A stretch of DNA of 12,477 nucleotides, taken from UHGV virus genome UHGV-0072520. One strand, 5' to 3'. Below are positions 2,667-11,268 of this stretch, in pieces; the stretch's first letter is position 1; every line of letters starts with the position of its first letter. The notes below the pieces were generated by a model. That model was not told the origin of the DNA. It made no database searches and was given only the letters and a program-made list of their open reading frames with translations. Source of the stretch: a virus. The position numbers and the translations under genes were made by a program.

Positions 2667-4628
2667 TCACCAGTCTGCTAAAACTATCGCCCCACGCATA
2701 AATGCACGGTAAAAAGGAGATTCCCCTGCAGGGAAGCTGAAATGGAGAACTGGTGCTTCCCCAACAGCGTAATAATCTTCCGGTTTGAATCCAAACATAA
2801 ACGTTTGGCTTGAAGAAAGAGTCACACTTGCAATATCTTGATAGCGAATACCGTCTTTGCTTTTACCCATAAGAAAAAGTCCGTTTATAGGATTCCCGCC
2901 ATTAAGATTGGATATCTCAAGCCAAGCCCCTACGCCCTTACTGTAGCTACTGCAAAGACATAGAGATGCATCAGAAGTTTTAAAAGCAACTCCACTGACA
3001 TCGACTCCTTGCTGGGTGGTTTCATGGTCCCCATCACCAGAGCCACTTAATATCCTAGTTGGCCATGCATTCTTCGTAATTGTCTGGTCACTTGAGCTTG
3101 GATCCGCAGGCATAACATCCTTAAGCAATTCCTGTAGTGGCCAATGTTTACCACTGCCGGCTCCACCAAATAGATAGGTCTTTGTTTTTAGCTGTCTTGG
3201 ATAAGACTTGGATGCTAGTTTAGTAACTAACTCTTGAAGTATTCGATTAGTGCGTATCCTGTCAGTAATACCTGGGTCAGCTTCACCATCCCATACAAAT
3301 GCACCAAAATTCCCATTGCCCGCAGCGCCAAATATTTCAGCGCCTCCAACTACCTGATCAATATCACCACTTATATTGCTTCCACTAAATAGAAACGCAC
3401 CAACTACAGGGATAACATTAGGAATTTCAGTCATTTTGGAAATTACACCAAAATCTAATCTCATTTTCACAAGATCGGCGTTAATTCTGGTTTGTAAATC
3501 TCCTGTTGCAGCAGTTGAATATGAGTTAACTAAAGCCAGATCATAATTTTTTGAATACCATTGATTGAACGGTCCGCCAGGAGGAAGTTGGCACACCATA
3601 AGCAATGTTTTGTTTGTAACACTACGAAGAGTTTCAATCTTTGCATCCTGATCTGCAACACTGATCCCTCTAGCGCCTGGCTCGTCATATACTGCATATG
3701 CTACAACCGCAGGATGAGTGTCTATGGATTTAACAAAACTTGGCAGATCAGATATAGCAAGCGGGTCTTGTTCGGTTCCGATAGAAACTTTTAGACCTGC
3801 TGTTAAAGCATTATCTAATAACTTAAACTTGTCGCCTTCATCATCTACAGAACCACTAAACCCCAAATAATGGTGGATACTATTAAATCCTAATTGCTTT
3901 ATAAATAACAACTCAGCCAAGTCATAAGCAGAGCTAACGTAACAAATTTTCACTTTTGCATCGAAAGATACATCTACTTCTGAAGTCGCTAATATTGATC
4001 CAAGATTGTAGCGAGTCGTGTTAATCTTAAAATTACCGATTAATTTCTGCCCCTTAGATTTCAGCTTTTTTGTGATTTTATACTCTTTGTCTTTGATTCC
4101 TACAACATCCTTCCCAGTATCAAATGCAGCCTGAATGGCGTCTGACCAATCATCATCAACAACAAGATTTGCATAATCTTCGATGTAAGCATATACATCA
4201 CTACGCTTATTAAGGTTGTCTATATCAGTCTGCTTTGCGGCCCCATTTACTAAATCCACACCACCAGGTGCAGCAAGCTCCTGTCTTAACTGATCAGGAT
4301 CGTACTTCAGCACATTAGGAAAATAGAATTGCTGTGCACCATACGCATCATAACCAGCCATAGAATGGCCTTGCACGGTAACGAATTTGGCAATCTGTCC
4401 GTTATATACAGGATAACCAGCAGCGTTAATGATGATTGGTTGAGAAACAGGAACGTGAGAGCCGTCTTCGTTCTCTATATAAACCTGAATCTGGTTTTCA
4501 GGATTTACCGGGTCCGTGTCAATTTTACCGATATAAATTTTGCCATTGGCTACGGCTTTAAAAGAACGCGCCATAGTGAAGAGTTGCGATGGCATTGATA
4601 CGATCACATTGGCTGTAATGTCTGTCAT
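2667..4628 (-). CDS. Tailspike protein: P22-type N-terminal head-binding domain, divergent C-terminal receptor-binding/depolymerase domain
   Basis: 653-aa ORF. The first ~115 aa ([13 protein letters not shown] ... [38 protein letters not shown] ... [13 protein letters not shown] ... NVLKYDPDQ) closely resemble the conserved head-binding domain of P22/Sf6/HK620 tailspikes as I recall them. The remainder is not recognisably the P22 endorhamnosidase. RBS GGAG lies 8 nt upstream of the ATG on the - strand. Confidence 0.85.
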
Positions 4629-4686
4629 TTAATTTGCTCCAGATACAAGGAATAGCCGCAGCATGGCTACGGTGAATTTTGGGCAT

Positions 4687-4709
4687 AAAAAAACCCAGCC
4701 GAAGCTGGG
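4687..4709 (-). terminator. Intrinsic terminator (- strand) upstream of the tailspike gene
   Basis: Stem cccagc / gctggg (4694-4699 and 4704-4709) with loop cgaa. Seven A's at 4687-4693 on the + strand give a U7 tract directly after the hairpin on the - strand. Confidence 0.5.
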
Positions 4710-4761
4710 TCGTTGCGTTGGTTATCTGTCAGTAGTTATGTACTGGCTGAAGGATTTGTAC

Positions 4762-4792
4762 AAAAAAACCACCTGACGGTGGGTTAATTTTT
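4762..4792. terminator. Putative bidirectional intrinsic terminator
   Basis: Stem ccacc / ggtgg (4769-4773 and 4778-4782) with loop tgac, flanked by an A7 run upstream (4762-4768) and ttaattttt downstream (4784-4792), so either strand gets a U-rich tail. Confidence 0.45.
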
Positions 4793-4810
4793 GCATTTAC
4801 CTGGGCCATA

Positions 4811-4839
4811 TTGACTACTTATAAAATGAGATCAATATT
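4811..4839 (+). promoter_or_regulatory. Candidate sigma70 promoter for the small + strand gene
   Basis: TTGACT (4811-4816), 17-nt spacer, AATATT (4834-4839); the -35 matches consensus at 5 of 6 positions and the -10 at 4 of 6. Lies about 35 nt upstream of the ATG at 4876. By-eye match only. Confidence 0.3.
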
Positions 4840-4875
4840 TAATCGCCCAATAATGGGTGTATGTTGAGGTATATC

Positions 4876-5055
4876 ATGGCGAAAAAACCAGGTGAAAACA
4901 CAGGAAAAAACGGCGGAATATACCAAGAAGTTGGCCCACGCGGCGGTAAGAAAGACAATTTTGCCACCGTCAAGGACAACGAAAGGCTTCCACCAACAAC
5001 AAAGCCAGGTCATGGCTGGGTATTGGATAAGCGAACTCCAGACAGCAAAAAGTAA
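4876..5055 (+). CDS. Small YjzC-like protein (function unknown)
   Basis: 59-aa ORF MAKKPGENTGKNGGIYQEVGPRGG ... LPPTTKPGHGWVLDKRTP. The G-x-Y-x-E-V-G ... W ... KRTP pattern resembles the YjzC-like small-protein family as I recall it. GAGG RBS 5 nt upstream of the ATG at 4876 (the ORF track's upstream ATG at 4861 lacks an RBS). A terminator follows. Confidence 0.5.
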   Translation: MAKKPGENTGKNGGIYQEVGPRGGKKDNFATVKDNERLPPTTKPGHGWVLDKRTPDSKK

Positions 5056-5061
5056 TAATCA

Positions 5062-5084
5062 AGCCGGGTCACTCCGGCTTTTTG
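5062..5084 (+). terminator. Intrinsic terminator after the YjzC-like gene
   Basis: Stem agccgg / ccggct (5062-5067 and 5074-5079) with loop gtcact, followed by a T5 run. It overlaps the 3' end of the convergent - strand gene, so it may serve both. Confidence 0.55.
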
Positions 5085-5434
5085 ATATGTCGCTCGCAGA
5101 ACTCAACAAGCCTGCTCATTAAGTAGCAGTAAGTCTCGTTGGCTCTTCCTGGTTCAACATCAACACCTACCCTTGAGCAGATATCGAATGCCATGTGAGC
5201 GCACTCATGGGCAATAGTAGATAGTTTGCCATTGAACACGCCTATCACATGCAAAACACCATTCTCGCTACTCATTGTATGAGACGCTCCGTTGGCGTCC
5301 GAGTCATGCACGTCAACGCCAAGTTTTTGATGCAGGCGTTGCCATTCTGGAAAGTCTCTACAAAACACAATTGTACCGCTCTCAAAGAGCGGAACGAGCA
5401 TCTTTGGTACGTTTCCAATGTTAACTTTTTTCAT
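5069..5434 (-). CDS. Hypothetical protein with HExxH zinc-metallopeptidase-like motif
   Basis: 121-aa ORF containing IAHECAHMAFD (H-E-x-x-H) followed by several Cys/His residues (DICS, YCY, FCERH) that could complete a metal site. AGGA RBS 4 nt upstream of the ATG on the - strand. No family assignment possible without a search. Confidence 0.55.
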   Translation of the reverse strand: MKKVNIGNVPKMLVPLFESGTIVFCRDFPEWQRLHQKLGVDVHDSDANGASHTMSSENGVLHVIGVFNGKLSTIAHECAHMAFDICSRVGVDVEPGRANETYCYLMSRLVEFCERHIKKPE

Positions 5435-5468
5435 GGTATCCTGCGCAAAACTAAGGAGAGTTAATTAT

Positions 5469-5954
5469 ATGAAAAAACCACTGTTAATTATCCCGCTTCT
5501 GCTGGCTGGGTGCGCAAAAGTAAGCGACTATCAGGCAAGTTGCGAGCAACGCTATCCAAAGCTTAGCGATATGGCTAATTGCCTTGATGCCAGCTTGAAG
5601 AACGACTCTCGCATGGCATCAGCACCAACACCTAAGCTGTATGTCCTTGCTGCGAAGATGCTCGGGCAAGGTGTCGATGAAGGCAAGATAAGTGACACAC
5701 AGGCAAGACTTGAACTTCAGAATCTTTATGTTCAATTACAAAGCCAAGAACAAGCACAACAAATAGCACAAAGCCAAGCATTCCAGCAGGCTTTATTGAA
5801 TTATCAGGCTGTAAACACAATGCAAGCGATCGAGCAAAAAGCGCGCCAGCCTGTTATAACTCAACCTTACCCAACACGCGTTGACACATATACAAACTGC
5901 AATTCAGGATTTGGAAACACGGTAACATGCAACAGTAGCAGTAATATCAGGTAG
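5469..5954 (+). CDS. Prophage-encoded lipoprotein, predicted outer-membrane localisation
   Basis: N-terminus MKKPLLIIPLLLAGC has a classic signal peptide plus LAGC lipobox, and Ala at +2 argues against inner-membrane retention. GGAG RBS about 10 nt upstream of the ATG at 5469 (the ORF-track start at 5418 adds an unlikely extension with no RBS). Gln-rich predicted helical middle; 161 aa. Confidence 0.7.
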   Translation: MKKPLLIIPLLLAGCAKVSDYQASCEQRYPKLSDMANCLDASLKNDSRMASAPTPKLYVLAAKMLGQGVDEGKISDTQARLELQNLYVQLQSQEQAQQIAQSQAFQQALLNYQAVNTMQAIEQKARQPVITQPYPTRVDTYTNCNSGFGNTVTCNSSSNIR

Positions 5955-5968
5955 TTACATCTTATCTT

Positions 5969-7816
5969 TTATTGCTGTTCTGCTGTAATTTGGCTTGAAA
6001 GTATAGGGCGTATCGCATTTGCAGCATTATTTAGCGCTCTTTCATAGGCTGGTGTTCCTGCTTTGGTGTTTGCCAAACGTAAGAGAGCATTCCTTGCTGC
6101 TTTTGACTCATACAAGCGCATCATTGCACCGAAACCAGCCTCAAGCCCCATTGATACGCCAAGAGTCGCAGTTGCGCCAATCGTCCTTATCCTGTTGGCT
6201 TGCGATTGCCCCGTCTGAGTTACTACATTTGCGGTGTCTGACCTTGCTGTTTGCTGTAGAACTTCATGAAGAGAATCAAGCTCTTTCATGTGCTTTCCAG
6301 AAAAAATAGTGTTGTAAATTTCACCGCCTGACTGAGATTTCAGCTTATTAACTTCAGTGATGAACTTGGCTGGAGAGTCCCCGGCCTTTTCCGCTATTTT
6401 GCTGACGTAAGCTGCACGCATAGCATCTTTCCCCTTATCATCCAGTGCGCTCCAGATTCGTTTCACGTCAGATGGTTTTCTGCTTAATACAACGGTATTT
6501 ATAAGTTCAGGACTGGCTTCACTGCTTGCCTTGTTGAGCTTGTTGGCAATGTTTTTATTAAGCACCTTATTATAAACGTTTGCATAATCGGAATTTGCTT
6601 TAAGGTATTTTGCTGCGTCTGATGCACCGAGGTTTTTAGCAACTGCGTTACGAAGGTCTTTTGACATTGCATTCTCTACCATATTGGTAGCTGCTTTTGC
6701 CTGGTTGGGGAAGACCATAGCATCTCCCTGAACATTAGATCTAAATGCTGTTCTGTGCTGACGCAAGAGATCAAACGTAACATCCAAATCAGTTGCAGGG
6801 TTTGCTAATTCTTCACGTAGGTTACGCAAGGATGTAAGCAGGCTTTGATTGGCAGACGTCCCAAGCCGTTCCTGTCTTGCGATCGCTGTATTCAGAGCAT
6901 TCATGGTATTTGTTGTATCAACTGCGGCATTACCCATTTTATTGGTGACGTCATTGATAACAGCGCCAGCGGCATCCTTCCGTCCCCTTAACGTGGTGGT
7001 CAGAGATTTCACCACATCATCAGGGTTGTACTCACCAAAACGGTCAAAATAATTACTTACCAGTTTACTACGCGTTGCATATTGCTCCGCTCGCTTTGAT
7101 CCTGTCCCGAGCAAAGCCCCCTCGGCATCCTGAGTAAGGCCGCGAGTGAAAGCATTTTTCGGTGGGATGACATCAGATGTCATTGGCGTCACACCCATTG
7201 ATTCTGAGGTGGCAATTTTTTTCGCTACTTCTGGCGCGATATCGCCTTTTATAGCCGTTATTCCACGCCCTATTCCCTTTGCTGCTGCGGAAAGAACACC
7301 CTGAGCGGCAAGGTTAACTCCGGCATTTTTAGCTGCATTTTGTGCGAAATCGCCTTTCTGATTTGCGGCCTCTGCCAGTGAGCCAATAGCCATGCTTCCT
7401 GCCGTTCCAACTCCTGGAACTAAATACCCGCCAATTGTTTCTCCAGCTTGCGCATAAGGGTCTGTCGGTCGATCGACAGGGCGATAAACATCATCCAAAA
7501 CCTTGGGGCCACCAAGCCCCTGGCTGATTGCATTAATCAGACTTGCGCCACCCTGCAATACGTCAAATGGTATGTTTACCAGACCACGACCAGCCTGTTC
7601 TGCAATTTGCCCTGCACTTTGACCACCAGTGAGCCAATCGCCAGCTTGTTGCATCAATGATGGTTCTTCCCGTGTTGGTGCATTATTGGCCTGATTAACT
7701 GTTTGTTGCTGAACAGCCTGACCAGCAAAATACTCATCAATGGCGGTGCCAATATCTTCGGTGCTCGTACCATCAGGAAAGGTAAATGTCTTACCGTTTG
7801 CAGTTACTTTCATCAT
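5969..7816 (-). CDS. Ejection (DNA-transfer/injection) protein, P22 gp16-like
   Basis: 615-aa Ala/Gly/Gln-rich ORF without obvious enzymatic motifs, upstream of and co-oriented with the tailspike, matching the position and approximate size of P22 gene 16. Start overlaps the upstream stop (ATGA at 7813-7816). Assignment is by synteny and composition, not verified homology. Confidence 0.6.
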
Positions 7817-8805
7817 TCCACCGTAAATTGAATGCCTGATTTTGAGGTATATGATCCGGATTGACTCTGCTGCTGTTGGGTATTTGTCGGTTGTTGGTTA
7901 TTGCTCTGTTGTTGACTATTTGCAGCACTTGAAACCACCAAAGCATCATAAACGCGACCAGACTGACCACGTAATGAGTTATATTGGCCCTGCATTTTTC
8001 GCATTTTTGTTTCAGTAGCAGCCTTGGAATCACCAGGCTGAGGCAGGTACATTTTGGAATACTCCTGCATCTCTGGCAGAGTAATTGCTGCACCTGTTTC
8101 TGGGCGCAAAATTGCATACAAGGCGTCTCTCGCATTTACCATATATTGCTGCTCCGCTGGTGATAGGCTTAAATTTGCAATAGTCCCATCACCAAGAGAG
8201 CGATTTATTAATGCAACTCGCTTAGGGTCAATGCTTTTACTAAGCTGATTCATTGAGTCCATTGAATCTTTTAATCGCAAAGCAAATCCTGCCGCCTTCT
8301 TGGAACCCTCATTAGCCTTATCTATGATGCTTTGCGCTTGTGGCAAACTAATTGGTTTAATGCCATCACCAGATATAGGTTGGTTTAGTTTTCCGGCTTC
8401 CTCGCTGCCATCGGTGTAATACTTAGTTACCGAGCCATCAGGATTGGTTTCAACCTTAAGTAATTTCTTAGCATTGGGATTAATTCCCGCCGCTGCCGCA
8501 AATGCCGCTGCACCATCTGGATCCGCCTTTAACATTTGCGCGTACTGATTGTAATTCTGCATTGCGACTGTTGGTGCATATGCTGACGTTAACGCATTTG
8601 CTCGGCTAATATCCTGCCCTCTCGCCTGAAGTGCCTCGCCAGCCTGATTGCTGCGGATTGTCTCTGCCAGTCTGCCTCGGTCAATCTCACGACCAGCCAT
8701 CTTGTCCTGAACAGCAAACGCCTTTTCTGGTCCAAGCGCACCGAGAGACATAGTAGTCAGCATGTGTGATAGCTGCTCTGGATTCTGGATACCTGTCTGA
8801 ATCAT
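7813..8805 (-). CDS. Ejection protein, P22 gp20-like, apparently missing its 5' end
   Basis: 330-aa ORF from the first ATG, but the frame stays open upstream to 8919 with no start codon, which suggests the N-terminal coding part was deleted. Translationally coupled to the gp16-like gene. Assignment is by synteny. Confidence 0.5.
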
Positions 8806-8835
8806 CCAGTCAGCATTAGCACCAACGCGATTTAA

Positions 8836-9192
8836 CCTGTCCTTGTTGTCAGTAATGAATTTACTGTAGGCTTCCGGTCCCTGAGAAAGAGCGACGTTAC
8901 CGTAATAGTCCCCTGTCGGTTAGGGAAGCTGCGTGTTGAGCTGGAAGCAACAGAGAACAACCTCATTGATAGTGAATGCCATGTTGCTGAACTGGAAGAA
9001 GCACTACGCGACAAGCAGGCGTTACTTGAAGCCTCAGAAAAGCGCATAGCAGAACAAAGCTCGATTGTTACAGCCGCTGAAAAACTGGTTCGCTGTAAAG
9101 GCCGCTATCACAGTGAGCAAAACTATCGTGCGCTGGCTGCATTGTTTGGCGTAACAGTGCCGGATTTACCACCACTGCAAGCAGATGATTAA
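8836..9192 (+). pseudogene. 3' fragment of an early-region gene (coiled-coil C-terminus), no start codon
   Basis: Open frame 8836-9189 with no ATG/GTG/TTG start. It encodes ...KLRVELEATENNLIDSECHVAELEEALRDKQALLEASEKRIAEQ...LFGVTVPDLPPLQADD and ends 10 nt before the next gene with operon-like spacing (AAGGA RBS at 9191-9195). Confidence 0.35.
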
Positions 9193-9202
9193 GGACTAAC
9201 CT

Positions 9203-9775
9203 ATGACCACTATTACCAAAGAGCGACTACTGACAATCAAGCAGTGGCGCGAAACATACGGACCTGGTAGCAACGTTGTACTGCCAGCAGAAGAAGCGGA
9301 AGAACTGGCACGAATTGCTCTGGCATCGCTGGAAGCAGAACCTGTAAGCCAAACTTACAACTTGCCACAAACGCACTTTGAACAGGTTGCTGACCTTTAC
9401 GAAATGCAATTTGATGACGGACGCACTTGTGCCTTTCATACTGATGCACAAAAGGCTGCGCAATGGCTTCGGGCATGCGACGGAAACAGGGTTCAGGAAT
9501 ACGTGAAACTGGAGCGACTGCAGAACGCGCTATCGGGCAACTCTCCGGTAATTCCGGATAGTTGGATAAGCTGTAGTGAGCGAATGCCGGAAAAGAATCA
9601 GAACGTGCTTATTTCGGTGAATTTCGATAGCTCTCTGGTTGAACCGCTAATATGCTCCGCACGCTATACCGGAAGCACCTTTCGGCGCGGAGATGCAACG
9701 ATTAAGCCGGGTAATGGTATTGAGCAAGCAACTCACTGGATTCCGCTACCGGAACCGCCGCAGGAGGCGAAATGA
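9203..9775 (+). CDS. DUF551-like phage early protein
   Basis: 190-aa ORF whose C-terminus (WISCSERMPEKNQNVLI ... ATHWIPLPEPP) matches the DUF551 signature common in lambdoid/P22-like early regions, as I recall it. AAGGA RBS 7 nt upstream. Confidence 0.68.
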   Translation: MTTITKERLLTIKQWRETYGPGSNVVLPAEEAEELARIALASLEAEPVSQTYNLPQTHFEQVADLYEMQFDDGRTCAFHTDAQKAAQWLRACDGNRVQEYVKLERLQNALSGNSPVIPDSWISCSERMPEKNQNVLISVNFDSSLVEPLICSARYTGSTFRRGDATIKPGNGIEQATHWIPLPEPPQEAK

Positions 9776-10032
9776 TGGATGTAAAAGAGAAGGTTTTGCA
9801 GGTGATGCGTTCCCGGGCTGCCCTGCAAGATAAAGCTCTCGGCGGGGAATATCCATTCAGAATGGCAACCTGGAATTTGCGGTTGGCAATGGAGAAGGAA
9901 TTTCCTGATGAAGAATGGCGTTCGGCAGATTTGCGCAAAATTCTTATGGAGATTGCTAAAGACGGAACAGTATCTAAAGATAACCATGCCAGCCGGATTG
10001 GTCAGGCGGTATGGAGACTGGAGGTGCGGTAA
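9772..10032 (+). CDS. Hypothetical small phage protein
   Basis: 86-aa ORF; start overlaps the upstream stop (ATGA at 9772-9775), indicating translational coupling within the early operon. Confidence 0.55.
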   Translation: MMDVKEKVLQVMRSRAALQDKALGGEYPFRMATWNLRLAMEKEFPDEEWRSADLRKILMEIAKDGTVSKDNHASRIGQAVWRLEVR

Positions 10033-10313
10033 TGGCTAACCTGCAACTTGCCGTCAAAGGTGAATACTTCGATGCCATGATTCGCGGAGATAAAACGGAA
10101 GAGTATCGCCTGTGTAATGACTACTGGAATAAGCGAATTATGTTCCGGGAATATGACCGCCTGATTATCACAAAGGGATATCCGAAGCGCGACGACTCCA
10201 GTCGCAGAATTGATGTTCCGTATGGAGGATATGAAGTGAAAACAATCACACACCCCCACTTCGGTGATAAGCCGGTAAAGGTATACGCGATAAAGGTGAA
10301 TATCAATTGCTAA
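10032..10313 (+). CDS. ASCH/PUA-like domain protein
   Basis: N-terminus MANLQLAVKGEYFDAMIRGDKTEEYRL resembles the ASCH-domain signature (compare E. coli YqfB ...FQDDILAGRKTITIRD). Start chosen at the ATG overlapping the upstream stop (TAATG) with GGAGGTG 7 nt upstream. The ORF-track start at 10011 lies inside the previous gene. Confidence 0.58.
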   Translation: MANLQLAVKGEYFDAMIRGDKTEEYRLCNDYWNKRIMFREYDRLIITKGYPKRDDSSRRIDVPYGGYEVKTITHPHFGDKPVKVYAIKVNINC

Positions 10314-10424
10314 ATTAGTGGCATAGCATAAAGATGCTTGCATTAATGAAGTGTGTATAATAACGCCTCATCAATTGTAAACTACTGAAATAGCAAAAAA
10401 TGCATATTAAAGAGGATTCGAAAA

Positions 10425-10616
10425 TTGAAAATGTTCATGCAAATAGACAGACGCATAGATCTTAATGGCAATTCATACTTAGTTAGATGCGAAGAGAGGC
10501 CTAACGGTGAGTGGCGTGTATATGATATTGACCGTAAGATCAATATCAGCACCATGAACAAAGACACTGCCTTTGATGAATGGAAAGCTGAAGCTAAAAA
10601 ACAACATAATTCGTAG
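10425..10616 (+). CDS. Hypothetical small protein
   Basis: 63-aa ORF. AGAGGA at 10411-10416 is well spaced for the TTG at 10425; ATGs at 10431 and 10437 are alternatives. Followed by a terminator. Confidence 0.42.
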   Translation: MKMFMQIDRRIDLNGNSYLVRCEERPNGEWRVYDIDRKINISTMNKDTAFDEWKAEAKKQHNS

Positions 10617-10658
10617 AATTACAAAAACCCTAACCAATTGATGGATTTCTTTTATCTG

Positions 10659-10683
10659 AACTCGCTACGGCGAGTTTTGTTTT
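10659..10683 (+). terminator. Intrinsic terminator
   Basis: 7-bp stem aactcgc / gcgagtt with loop tacg, followed by ttgtttt. Confidence 0.55.
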
Positions 10684-10695
10684 ATGGAGATGATT

Positions 10696-10995
10696 ATGGC
10701 CTGTTCAACATTCAACCCTCTAACGTTACAGAAATACCAGCCAGCCCCTGAAGATTTATGCTCACTGTGTGGCGGAAATCATGGTAAAGCCGCCATGATT
10801 GAATGTAAGGACAAAATCCACATTTGCCTTAATTGCGTTGATGTCCTCGTTGATATCAAAAATGAGAGAGAAGATAAAAAGCGTAGCGAGGCTGTTCGAG
10901 CCTTAGATTCATGGATGCGAGATGGGTATAGTGCCGCGCAAATTTATGACTTAGCAATATCAAAAGGCGAAATACCAGGAGTGCGCATCGAATAA
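10696..10995 (+). CDS. Cys-rich small protein, possible zinc-ribbon
   Basis: ORF with paired CxxC motifs (CSLCGG ... CLNC) separated by about 18 residues. Start chosen at the ATG at 10696 with GGAG 6 nt upstream; the ORF track begins at 10684. Confidence 0.5.
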   Translation: MACSTFNPLTLQKYQPAPEDLCSLCGGNHGKAAMIECKDKIHICLNCVDVLVDIKNEREDKKRSEAVRALDSWMRDGYSAAQIYDLAISKGEIPGVRIE

Positions 10996-11035
10996 GACGT
11001 AACCAATATTTGTATTGAAGAACTGAAAGAACACC

Positions 11036-11061
11036 AAGCCGCCTGATGGCGGTTTATTTTT
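11036..11061 (+). terminator. Intrinsic terminator
   Basis: Stem ccgcc / ggcgg (11039-11043 and 11048-11052) with loop tgat, extendable by A-T pairs, followed by tttattttt. Confidence 0.55.
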
Positions 11062-11076
11062 GCCTGGAGAATTAAG

Positions 11077-11268
11077 ATGACCGATACCAGCCTGATTCCT
11101 GAGAAAGAAGTGATGAACAAGCTCGGTGTTTCATCACGTCAGACAATCTGGAACTATACCAAACGGCACGGATTTCCGAAGCCAGTCAGAACCCACCCCA
11201 AATCATACCTTCGTGAAGCTGTTGAGGGGTGGATTCTTAACGGTGGCGTTAATCAGAAATGCTCCTGA
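11077..11268 (+). CDS. AlpA-family phage transcriptional regulator / putative excisionase (HTH)
   Basis: 63-aa ORF MTDTSLIPEKEVMNKLGVSSRQTIWNYTKRHGFPKPV..., typical of AlpA/Xis-like small HTH proteins next to P4-type integrases. GGAG RBS at 11065-11068. Confidence 0.75.
   Translation: MTDTSLIPEKEVMNKLGVSSRQTIWNYTKRHGFPKPVRTHPKSYLREAVEGWILNGGVNQKCS

Follow-up and report, generated by a model that had tools for sequence, protein, structure and literature searches.

In the late operons of lambda and P22, polymerase that has been modified at qut by Q or gp23 passes intrinsic terminators, and the terminator that precedes P22 gene 9, the tailspike gene, is a classical case of control by termination and antitermination. 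This terminator, which lies between ant and gene 9, was reportedly described by Berget, Poteete and Sauer in 1983, J Mol Biol 164:561. In P22 it closes the Pant transcript of an intact arc-ant operon, and the same general map neighborhood encodes sar, which also ends in a hairpin terminator.

Villafane et al. (2008; PMC2629481) described an "ant moron" between genes 16 and 9, noted that ant is degraded in phage HK620, and reported that the moron affects how often polymerase from the late promoter reaches the tailspike gene. The HK620 record (GenBank AF335538; Clark et al. 2001, J Mol Biol 311:657, as cited in PMC2629481) labels a "terminator associated with remnant of P22 ant gene; tANT" and a "terminator associated with remnant of P22 mnt gene; tMNT". 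It also annotates a bidirectional terminator, tORF59A, and, after gene 9, tR', where late transcription ends. A terminator between ant and gene 9 is annotated in P22-pbi (AF527608) and in epsilon34, and in epsilon34 Rho-independent terminators are annotated at both places, one of them over the mnt stop codon on the minus strand. The terminator annotations in HK620, P22-pbi and epsilon34 rest on position and similarity. Both the tANT/tMNT pair and its derivation from ant and mnt remnants are therefore already known, having been annotated in HK620 in 2001. A different kind of transcript has been described in the related prophage BTP1, where STnc6030, an antisense RNA that starts within the 5' region of the tailspike gene, mediates superinfection exclusion (Owen et al. 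2020; PMC7067206).

Here, we analyzed UHGV-0072520, a stretch of 12,477 nt that we refer to as the window, with a focus on the interval at 4629-4860, directly upstream of a tailspike gene. An earlier, sequence-only reading had described this interval as a terminator-dense leader. It is indeed dense in terminators, but it does not appear to be a purpose-built leader. We consider it very likely that the interval is the scar of an old deletion of immI, the P22-type second immunity region (mnt, arc, sar and ant), that brought the pre-existing tANT and tMNT together, and that the pair would stop unmodified polymerase and leave gene 9 most likely silent.

The deletion junction upstream of gene 9

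The tailspike gene (gene 9; 653 aa) occupies 2667-4628 on the minus strand and matches Pfam Head_binding (E = 1.1e-65). Upstream of it on the same strand lie gp16 (5969-7816) and hkcC (5069-5434; 121 aa; HK620 hkcC; phrog_1365, E = 1.7e-39), the latter being the nearest upstream gene on the tailspike strand. Between hkcC and the interval is orf59a, or hkcD (4876-5055, plus strand; 59 aa; phrog_3202, E = 7e-31), and the bidirectional tORF59A falls at 5061-5080, between the convergent orf59a and hkcC, with T-scores of 2.9 on the plus strand vs. 1.1 on the minus strand. The resulting order of gp16, hkcC, orf59a, scar and gene 9 is the same as in HK620 and P22, and it puts the interval at the position of the ant moron. 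The right boundary that had been drawn at 4860 coincides with the start of the longest ORF, whereas the orf59a start annotated in P22 corresponds to window position 4876.

Alignment to P22-pbi resolved the interval into two parts that meet at 4745|4746. Window positions 4500-4694 align with the start of gene 9 and its leader, and 4660-4745 with the P22 ant-gene 9 terminator and the 3' end of ant. On the left of the junction, the gene 9 leader and tANT are thus followed by the terminal 17 nt of ant, including its TGA stop codon (4729-4745, minus strand), as identified by the P22 alignment and by the 3' end of epsilon34 ant. To the right are the last 31 nt of mnt (4746-4776, plus strand), which encode ...LKDLYKKTT and the stop codon, followed by a spacer and orf59a; from the mnt 3' end on, identity to P22 is 98%. 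Between these two segments P22 has 1427 bp that the window lacks, containing nearly all of ant, most of mnt, arc, sar with its promoter Psar, and the Pant/Pmnt operator region.

Few other sequences cross this junction. Hundreds of matches in phages and E. coli prophages end exactly at 4745|4746 (query position 117|118), and it is spanned only by HK620 (two records) and by 16 of the 5426 complete E. coli genomes. We also scanned viral contigs with a 16-mer from the 3' end of mnt, which gave many chance matches in unrelated phages, and only 60 hairpin-bearing loci were kept. The same junction, with the sequence GTACTGGCTGAAGG, was found in 6 of these 60 IMG/VR contigs, and HK620 has it at the identical nucleotide.

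HK620 is 96% identical to the window over 4400-5200 and 97% identical over 4629-4860, and it shares the order gene 9, tANT, ant', mnt', tMNT, hkcD, tORF59A and hkcC. It differs in having one base fewer in each stem/tract region, in the receptor-binding domain of its tailspike, and in the gene at the sieA/hkcB position. The tailspike of the window is a mosaic, with 79% identity to the HK620 tailspike over residues 1-146 only, of which ~1-115 form the head-binding domain, and a remainder that shows no relation to the receptor-binding domain of HK620; in the assembly collection, the exact protein occurred in a single contig. The P22 sieA position is occupied by a gene at 5418-5954 (plus strand; likely start 5469) encoding 178 aa, which matches phrog_6067, a family of unknown function. 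We considered this ORF as a candidate SieA and rejected it, finding no similarity; a lipobox-like LLAGC near its N-terminus suggests a prophage-encoded lipoprotein. The ENA pipeline also called a 37-aa ORF across the scar (4663-4776, plus strand), which is most likely an annotation artifact. It crosses both terminators and borrows the mnt stop codon; its frame is broken in HK620 by two 1-nt indels, and its ATG is missing in some relatives.

The P22 ant-gene 9 terminator is 95% identical to its counterpart in the window over 86 nt that include the hairpin, the U-tract and the flanks, and the gene 9 leader and Shine-Dalgarno sequence beyond it are also shared. In P22, by contrast, ant is intact, and the stretch from tANT to gene 9 is 110 nt longer, the additional sequence being bracketed by a 17-nt direct repeat (AAAATTCACCGTAGCCA). 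This extra segment (~1897-2007 of the P22-pbi segment compared) holds another hairpin (GACCTAC...GTAGGTC), and the short form of the ant-gene 9 spacer is found in the window, HK620 and epsilon34.

The extent of the deletion bears directly on the suggestion, made in the sequence-only reading, that the region might encode a short regulatory RNA analogous to P22 sar and ending at one of the hairpins. Hairpins with U-tails do resemble the 3' ends of small RNAs, and sar is encoded in this very neighborhood of P22. However, sar, Psar and the target of sar, the ant ribosome-binding site, all lie inside the deleted 1427 bp; Psar is located within ant, of which 17 nt are left, and neither it nor the ant ribosome-binding site is present in the window. 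Searching the complete window against every Rfam family with an E-value criterion gave 0 matches, no sigma-70-like promoter was found on the minus strand within 4629-4860, and only ~50 nt lie between the hairpins. Given that the gene remnants and known terminators account fully for the sequence, we regard a sar-like RNA as exceedingly improbable.

A related cassette occurs in Stx phages similar to 933W, which carry the same tMNT and tANT joined at a different junction, with ~35 nt of mnt and ~33 nt of ant retained. In 933W, this cassette (1501-1615 of the 933W segment compared) lies in the nin region, with L0095 and roi on either side, rather than ahead of a tailspike gene, and the same type of arrangement was present in 7 of the 60 hairpin-bearing IMG/VR contigs. 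The 933W-type cassette looks like a second, independent immI deletion scar; its different junction is only a mildly new point. The exact 19-nt tANT hairpin (ACCCAGCTTCGGCTGGGTT) followed by a T-tract was also found in IMG/VR loci apparently unrelated to ant or gene 9, in contexts that include the flanks GGATGTGGTTCG... and GGCTCACAAGG..., and these copies may be convergent or borrowed terminators.

Anatomy of the hairpins in the tailspike leader

A pattern scan combined with folding confirmed the two minus-strand hairpins with U-tracts that the sequence-only reading had picked out. Both have the anatomy of an intrinsic terminator, a GC-rich stem-loop followed by a U-tract, in the direction of tailspike transcription, and they are separated by a spacer of 50 nt. 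Across the whole window, the scan returned 22 terminator-like sites compared with 10.7 +/- 3.2 in shuffled sequence. On one strand of the 232-nt interval there were three, where ~0.1 would be expected, the third being a hairpin without a U-tract.

The hairpin nearer to gene 9, tANT, extends over 4685-4711, within a few bases of the 4687-4709 previously given. As read from the sequence, its stem-loop (4692-4711; GACCCAGC-UUCG-GCUGGGUU) has 8 bp, 5 of them GC pairs, and a cUUCGg loop, and it is followed by a U7 tail at 4685-4691. The stem alone has a free energy of -12.2 to -13.5 kcal/mol on the minus strand, and folding in local context gave -14.5 kcal/mol (z = -2.7 vs. shuffles).

The second hairpin, tMNT, is smaller. 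Its core lies at 4762-4782 on the minus strand, where HK620 has tMNT and epsilon34 a minus-strand Rho-independent terminator, and consists of the stem-loop CCACC-GUCA-GGUGG (4769-4782) and a U7 tail (4762-4768) that is the complement of two mnt Lys codons. With 5 bp, 4 of them GC pairs, and a stem-only energy of -7.6 kcal/mol on the minus strand, the core is a marginal GC-rich stem-loop. The span of 4762-4792 proposed for this hairpin corresponds to an A/U-extended form (-12.9 kcal/mol, z = -2.9 vs. shuffles) rather than to the core. The expectation that these hairpins would fold stably enough for termination is therefore upheld by the stem energies of tANT and, marginally, by that of tMNT, whose termination efficiency may be low given that a 5-bp stem is near the weak end for intrinsic terminators.

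The sequence-only reading had also considered tMNT symmetric enough to act on both strands. The stem does fold both ways (-7.6 kcal/mol on the minus strand and -6.7 kcal/mol on the plus strand), but the tails are not equivalent: the plus-strand tail (GTTAATTTTT) has a T-score of 1.7, compared with 5.0 for tMNT on the minus strand, where the scores of the two hairpins range from 4.5 to 5.0. On the plus strand, tMNT would be a weak terminator at best. P22 has a tMNT variant whose minus strand keeps a G.U pair (-7.2 kcal/mol) where the plus strand has a C.A mismatch (-2.8 kcal/mol), and in other contexts the plus-strand tail is not T-rich (epsilon34 type, GTCCTATTTATT; 933W type, GTTACTGTTACT). 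These small variants would fit a minus-strand function, a pattern that is only suggestive given the small numbers and a search pattern that included the U-tract. Since the A-run belonged to that pattern, the set of 60 loci cannot serve as an argument for conservation of the U-tract.

The third hairpin of the leader, hp3 (4656-4672, minus strand; CCGUAGC-CAU-GCUGCGG), has no U-tract. Its folding energy is -9.3 to -10.4 kcal/mol, and it includes a U.G pair that is valid on the minus strand only. It is located 16 nt upstream of the gene 9 Shine-Dalgarno sequence, GGAG (4637-4640, minus strand), which itself stands 8 nt before the gene 9 ATG and is invariant in 23 distinct leaders. Over these 23 leaders, 96% of the cells in the hp3 stem were paired, while the loop varied (CAU, UAC, CAC, CCC or AAC). 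This combination of a constant stem and a variable loop gives a mild hint that hp3 has a structural function in the leader of the tailspike mRNA. A covariation test on the 23 IMG/VR gene 9 leaders, which are 97% identical to one another and therefore carry little information for such a test, found no compensatory change in any pair of tANT or hp3, a result equal to that of shuffles. Covariation support is absent because the stems are nearly invariant.

Missing antitermination and expression of the tailspike gene

Comparison with E. coli loci indicated that the window is approximately a whole defective prophage, running from gtrA to int at the dacD-sbcB site; in the source contig, int adjoins sbcB. 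It begins with gtrA, gtrB and a gtrC-like gene (plus strand), the tailspike gene (minus), the scar, orf59a (plus) and hkcC (minus). Next come the predicted lipoprotein gene (plus), gp16 (minus), a truncated gp20 (minus), DUF551 and other early-left genes, an excisionase-like HTH gene and the integrase gene. About 161 N-terminal residues are missing from gp20, and the truncated gene 20 is joined directly to the early-left genes, xis and int. The prophage has lost Q, the late promoter and all that would lie between the early-left genes and mid-gene 20. The main prophage deletion junction is located at 7813-9047 on the minus strand; there, just upstream of gp20, the first 44 residues of an ORF at 8832-9047 match phrog_13760. 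As judged from its position, the promoter of this phrog_13760-matching gene may now drive the gp20'-gp16 remnant. The dacD-sbcB loci of E. coli 160-11H1 and E1433 hold sister remnants with the same ends and different internal deletions. One sister remnant retains fragments of coat, gp4 and gp10, and another has an intact mnt-arc-ant and an IS100 in int; the part that persists among them is the right end, gtrABC and the tailspike gene.

The suspicion that the late promoter and antiterminator had been deleted is supported. Q, pR', qut, the lysis genes and the head genes are absent from the window. Searches by tblastn and blastn found no match in the window to HK620 Q (lambda-type), pR', qut or tQ, and Pfam and PHROG scans found no antiterminator among the substantial ORFs, including those at 8800-11250; Q types other than the lambda type are excluded by this ORF inventory only. 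The locus resembles the late operons of lambda (Q/qut) and P22 (gp23) in that intrinsic terminators precede a late gene within the operon, and the matching annotations in HK620, P22-pbi and epsilon34 agree with the earlier expectation that a P22-like late operon contains such terminators. The window differs from these systems in that it has no antiterminator gene, no late promoter and no qut in cis. With both the cis and the trans components missing, antitermination of the lambda/P22 type cannot operate there. HK620, in contrast to this Q-less remnant, is a viable phage with a lambda-like Q, pR' and qut. Since HK620 is viable with the scar together with Q, pR' and qut, the scar arrangement works in a live phage.

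These comparisons suggest how the terminator pair would act. In intact relatives, polymerase initiating at the late promoter would, once modified by Q or gp23, pass both hairpins and transcribe gene 9, whereas unmodified polymerase would halt at them. Such unmodified polymerase could come from ant moron genes expressed in the prophage, such as hkcC, or from spurious starts, and it would meet tMNT as a first, weaker stop and tANT as a strong backstop. Read-through for the two terminators to block could originate in hkcC, given that no other gene on the tailspike strand lies closer upstream. In the remnant, Q and the late promoter have been lost, so nothing would override the terminators and gene 9, although intact, is most likely silent. 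We infer, then, that the tailspike gene is probably intact but unexpressed, and the earlier proposal that it is transcriptionally isolated is plausible given the absence of the late promoter, qut and the antiterminator. In BTP1, Owen et al. (PMC7067206) identified several secondary promoters within the tailspike gene, so low-level transcription of gene 9 that bypasses the leader is possible by analogy. Directly after the gene 9 stop codon is a further minus-strand hairpin (2637-2661; 10-bp stem with 6 GC pairs, -16.3 kcal/mol), at the position of tR' in HK620.

Whether the terminators have anything to stop depends on transcription from upstream. Our promoter scan found no sigma-70-like promoter on the minus strand from 4629 to ~7150. 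On the plus strand, a promoter-like site at 4811-4839 (TTGACT, 17 nt, AATATT) matches the consensus at 9 of 12 positions, and its sequence is conserved in P22. It is a candidate by consensus match only, placed where it could drive orf59a after the loss of Pmnt.

The lack of a minus-strand promoter-like site over this distance is one of the observations that would fit a simpler account, in which the hairpins are inert relics, no upstream transcription enters the interval, and the end points of the deletion merely fell inside ant and mnt. The heavily deleted state of the prophage and the lack of compensatory evolution in the stems point the same way. However, hkcC is intact, and the terminator that follows it has a poor tail on the minus strand. 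In addition, the HK620-type and 933W-type junctions both kept both hairpins, which hints at selection without proving it. The inert-relic account is compatible with the immI-scar explanation as to what the elements are; the only point of difference is whether any transcription arrives to be stopped. We consider it unlikely, though with an appreciable chance of being right.

Possible selection on the terminator pair and its use in annotation

The immI-scar explanation treats the pair as the by-product of a deletion. A different possibility is that tMNT and tANT form a selected, portable double-terminator insulator and not a passive scar, or else that the plus-strand face of tMNT ends an STnc6030-like RNA that runs over the tailspike ribosome-binding site. 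On the insulator reading, the pair may have arisen from at least two independent immI deletions (HK620-type and 933W-type), and the type A junction may also have moved into several different flanking contexts. We hold this set of possibilities to be doubtful, with only a small chance of being correct.

The antisense possibility can also be stated on its own terms: a plus-strand RNA would start in the 5' part of the tailspike gene, cross the gene 9 ribosome-binding site, end at tMNT or tORF59A, and serve as an antisense regulator or exclusion RNA. STnc6030 of BTP1 provides a precedent (PMC7067206), since it too is a non-coding RNA, transcribed in a P22-like prophage where the injection-protein genes meet the tailspike gene. 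The plus strand of tMNT has some terminator character (-6.7 kcal/mol, with the tail GTTAATTTTT), and tORF59A has a good plus-strand tail. However, no plus-strand promoter-like site was found in 4300-4700 at the scan threshold, the plus-strand tail of tMNT is not conserved across contexts (GTCCTATTTATT, GTTACTGTTACT), and the plus-strand stem is broken in the P22 variant. STnc6030 itself differs in lying on the opposite strand, in starting inside the tailspike gene, and in coming from a prophage that has no ant moron, and PMC7067206 states that P22 has no nucleotide similarity in the corresponding region. We found neither promoter nor homology evidence for an STnc6030-like RNA in the window, and we consider one very unlikely.

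We therefore return to the immI deletion scar as the explanation of 4629-4860. As such, the finding is an ordinary one, a further copy of a known terminator pair in a decayed E. coli prophage, and it carries little weight beyond correct annotation. For annotation, the intact tailspike gene of this defective prophage should not be assumed to be expressed, and the 37-aa ORF that an automatic pipeline placed across the scar is best removed. Double terminators of the tANT-tMNT kind mark immI deletions in P22-like and Stx prophages.
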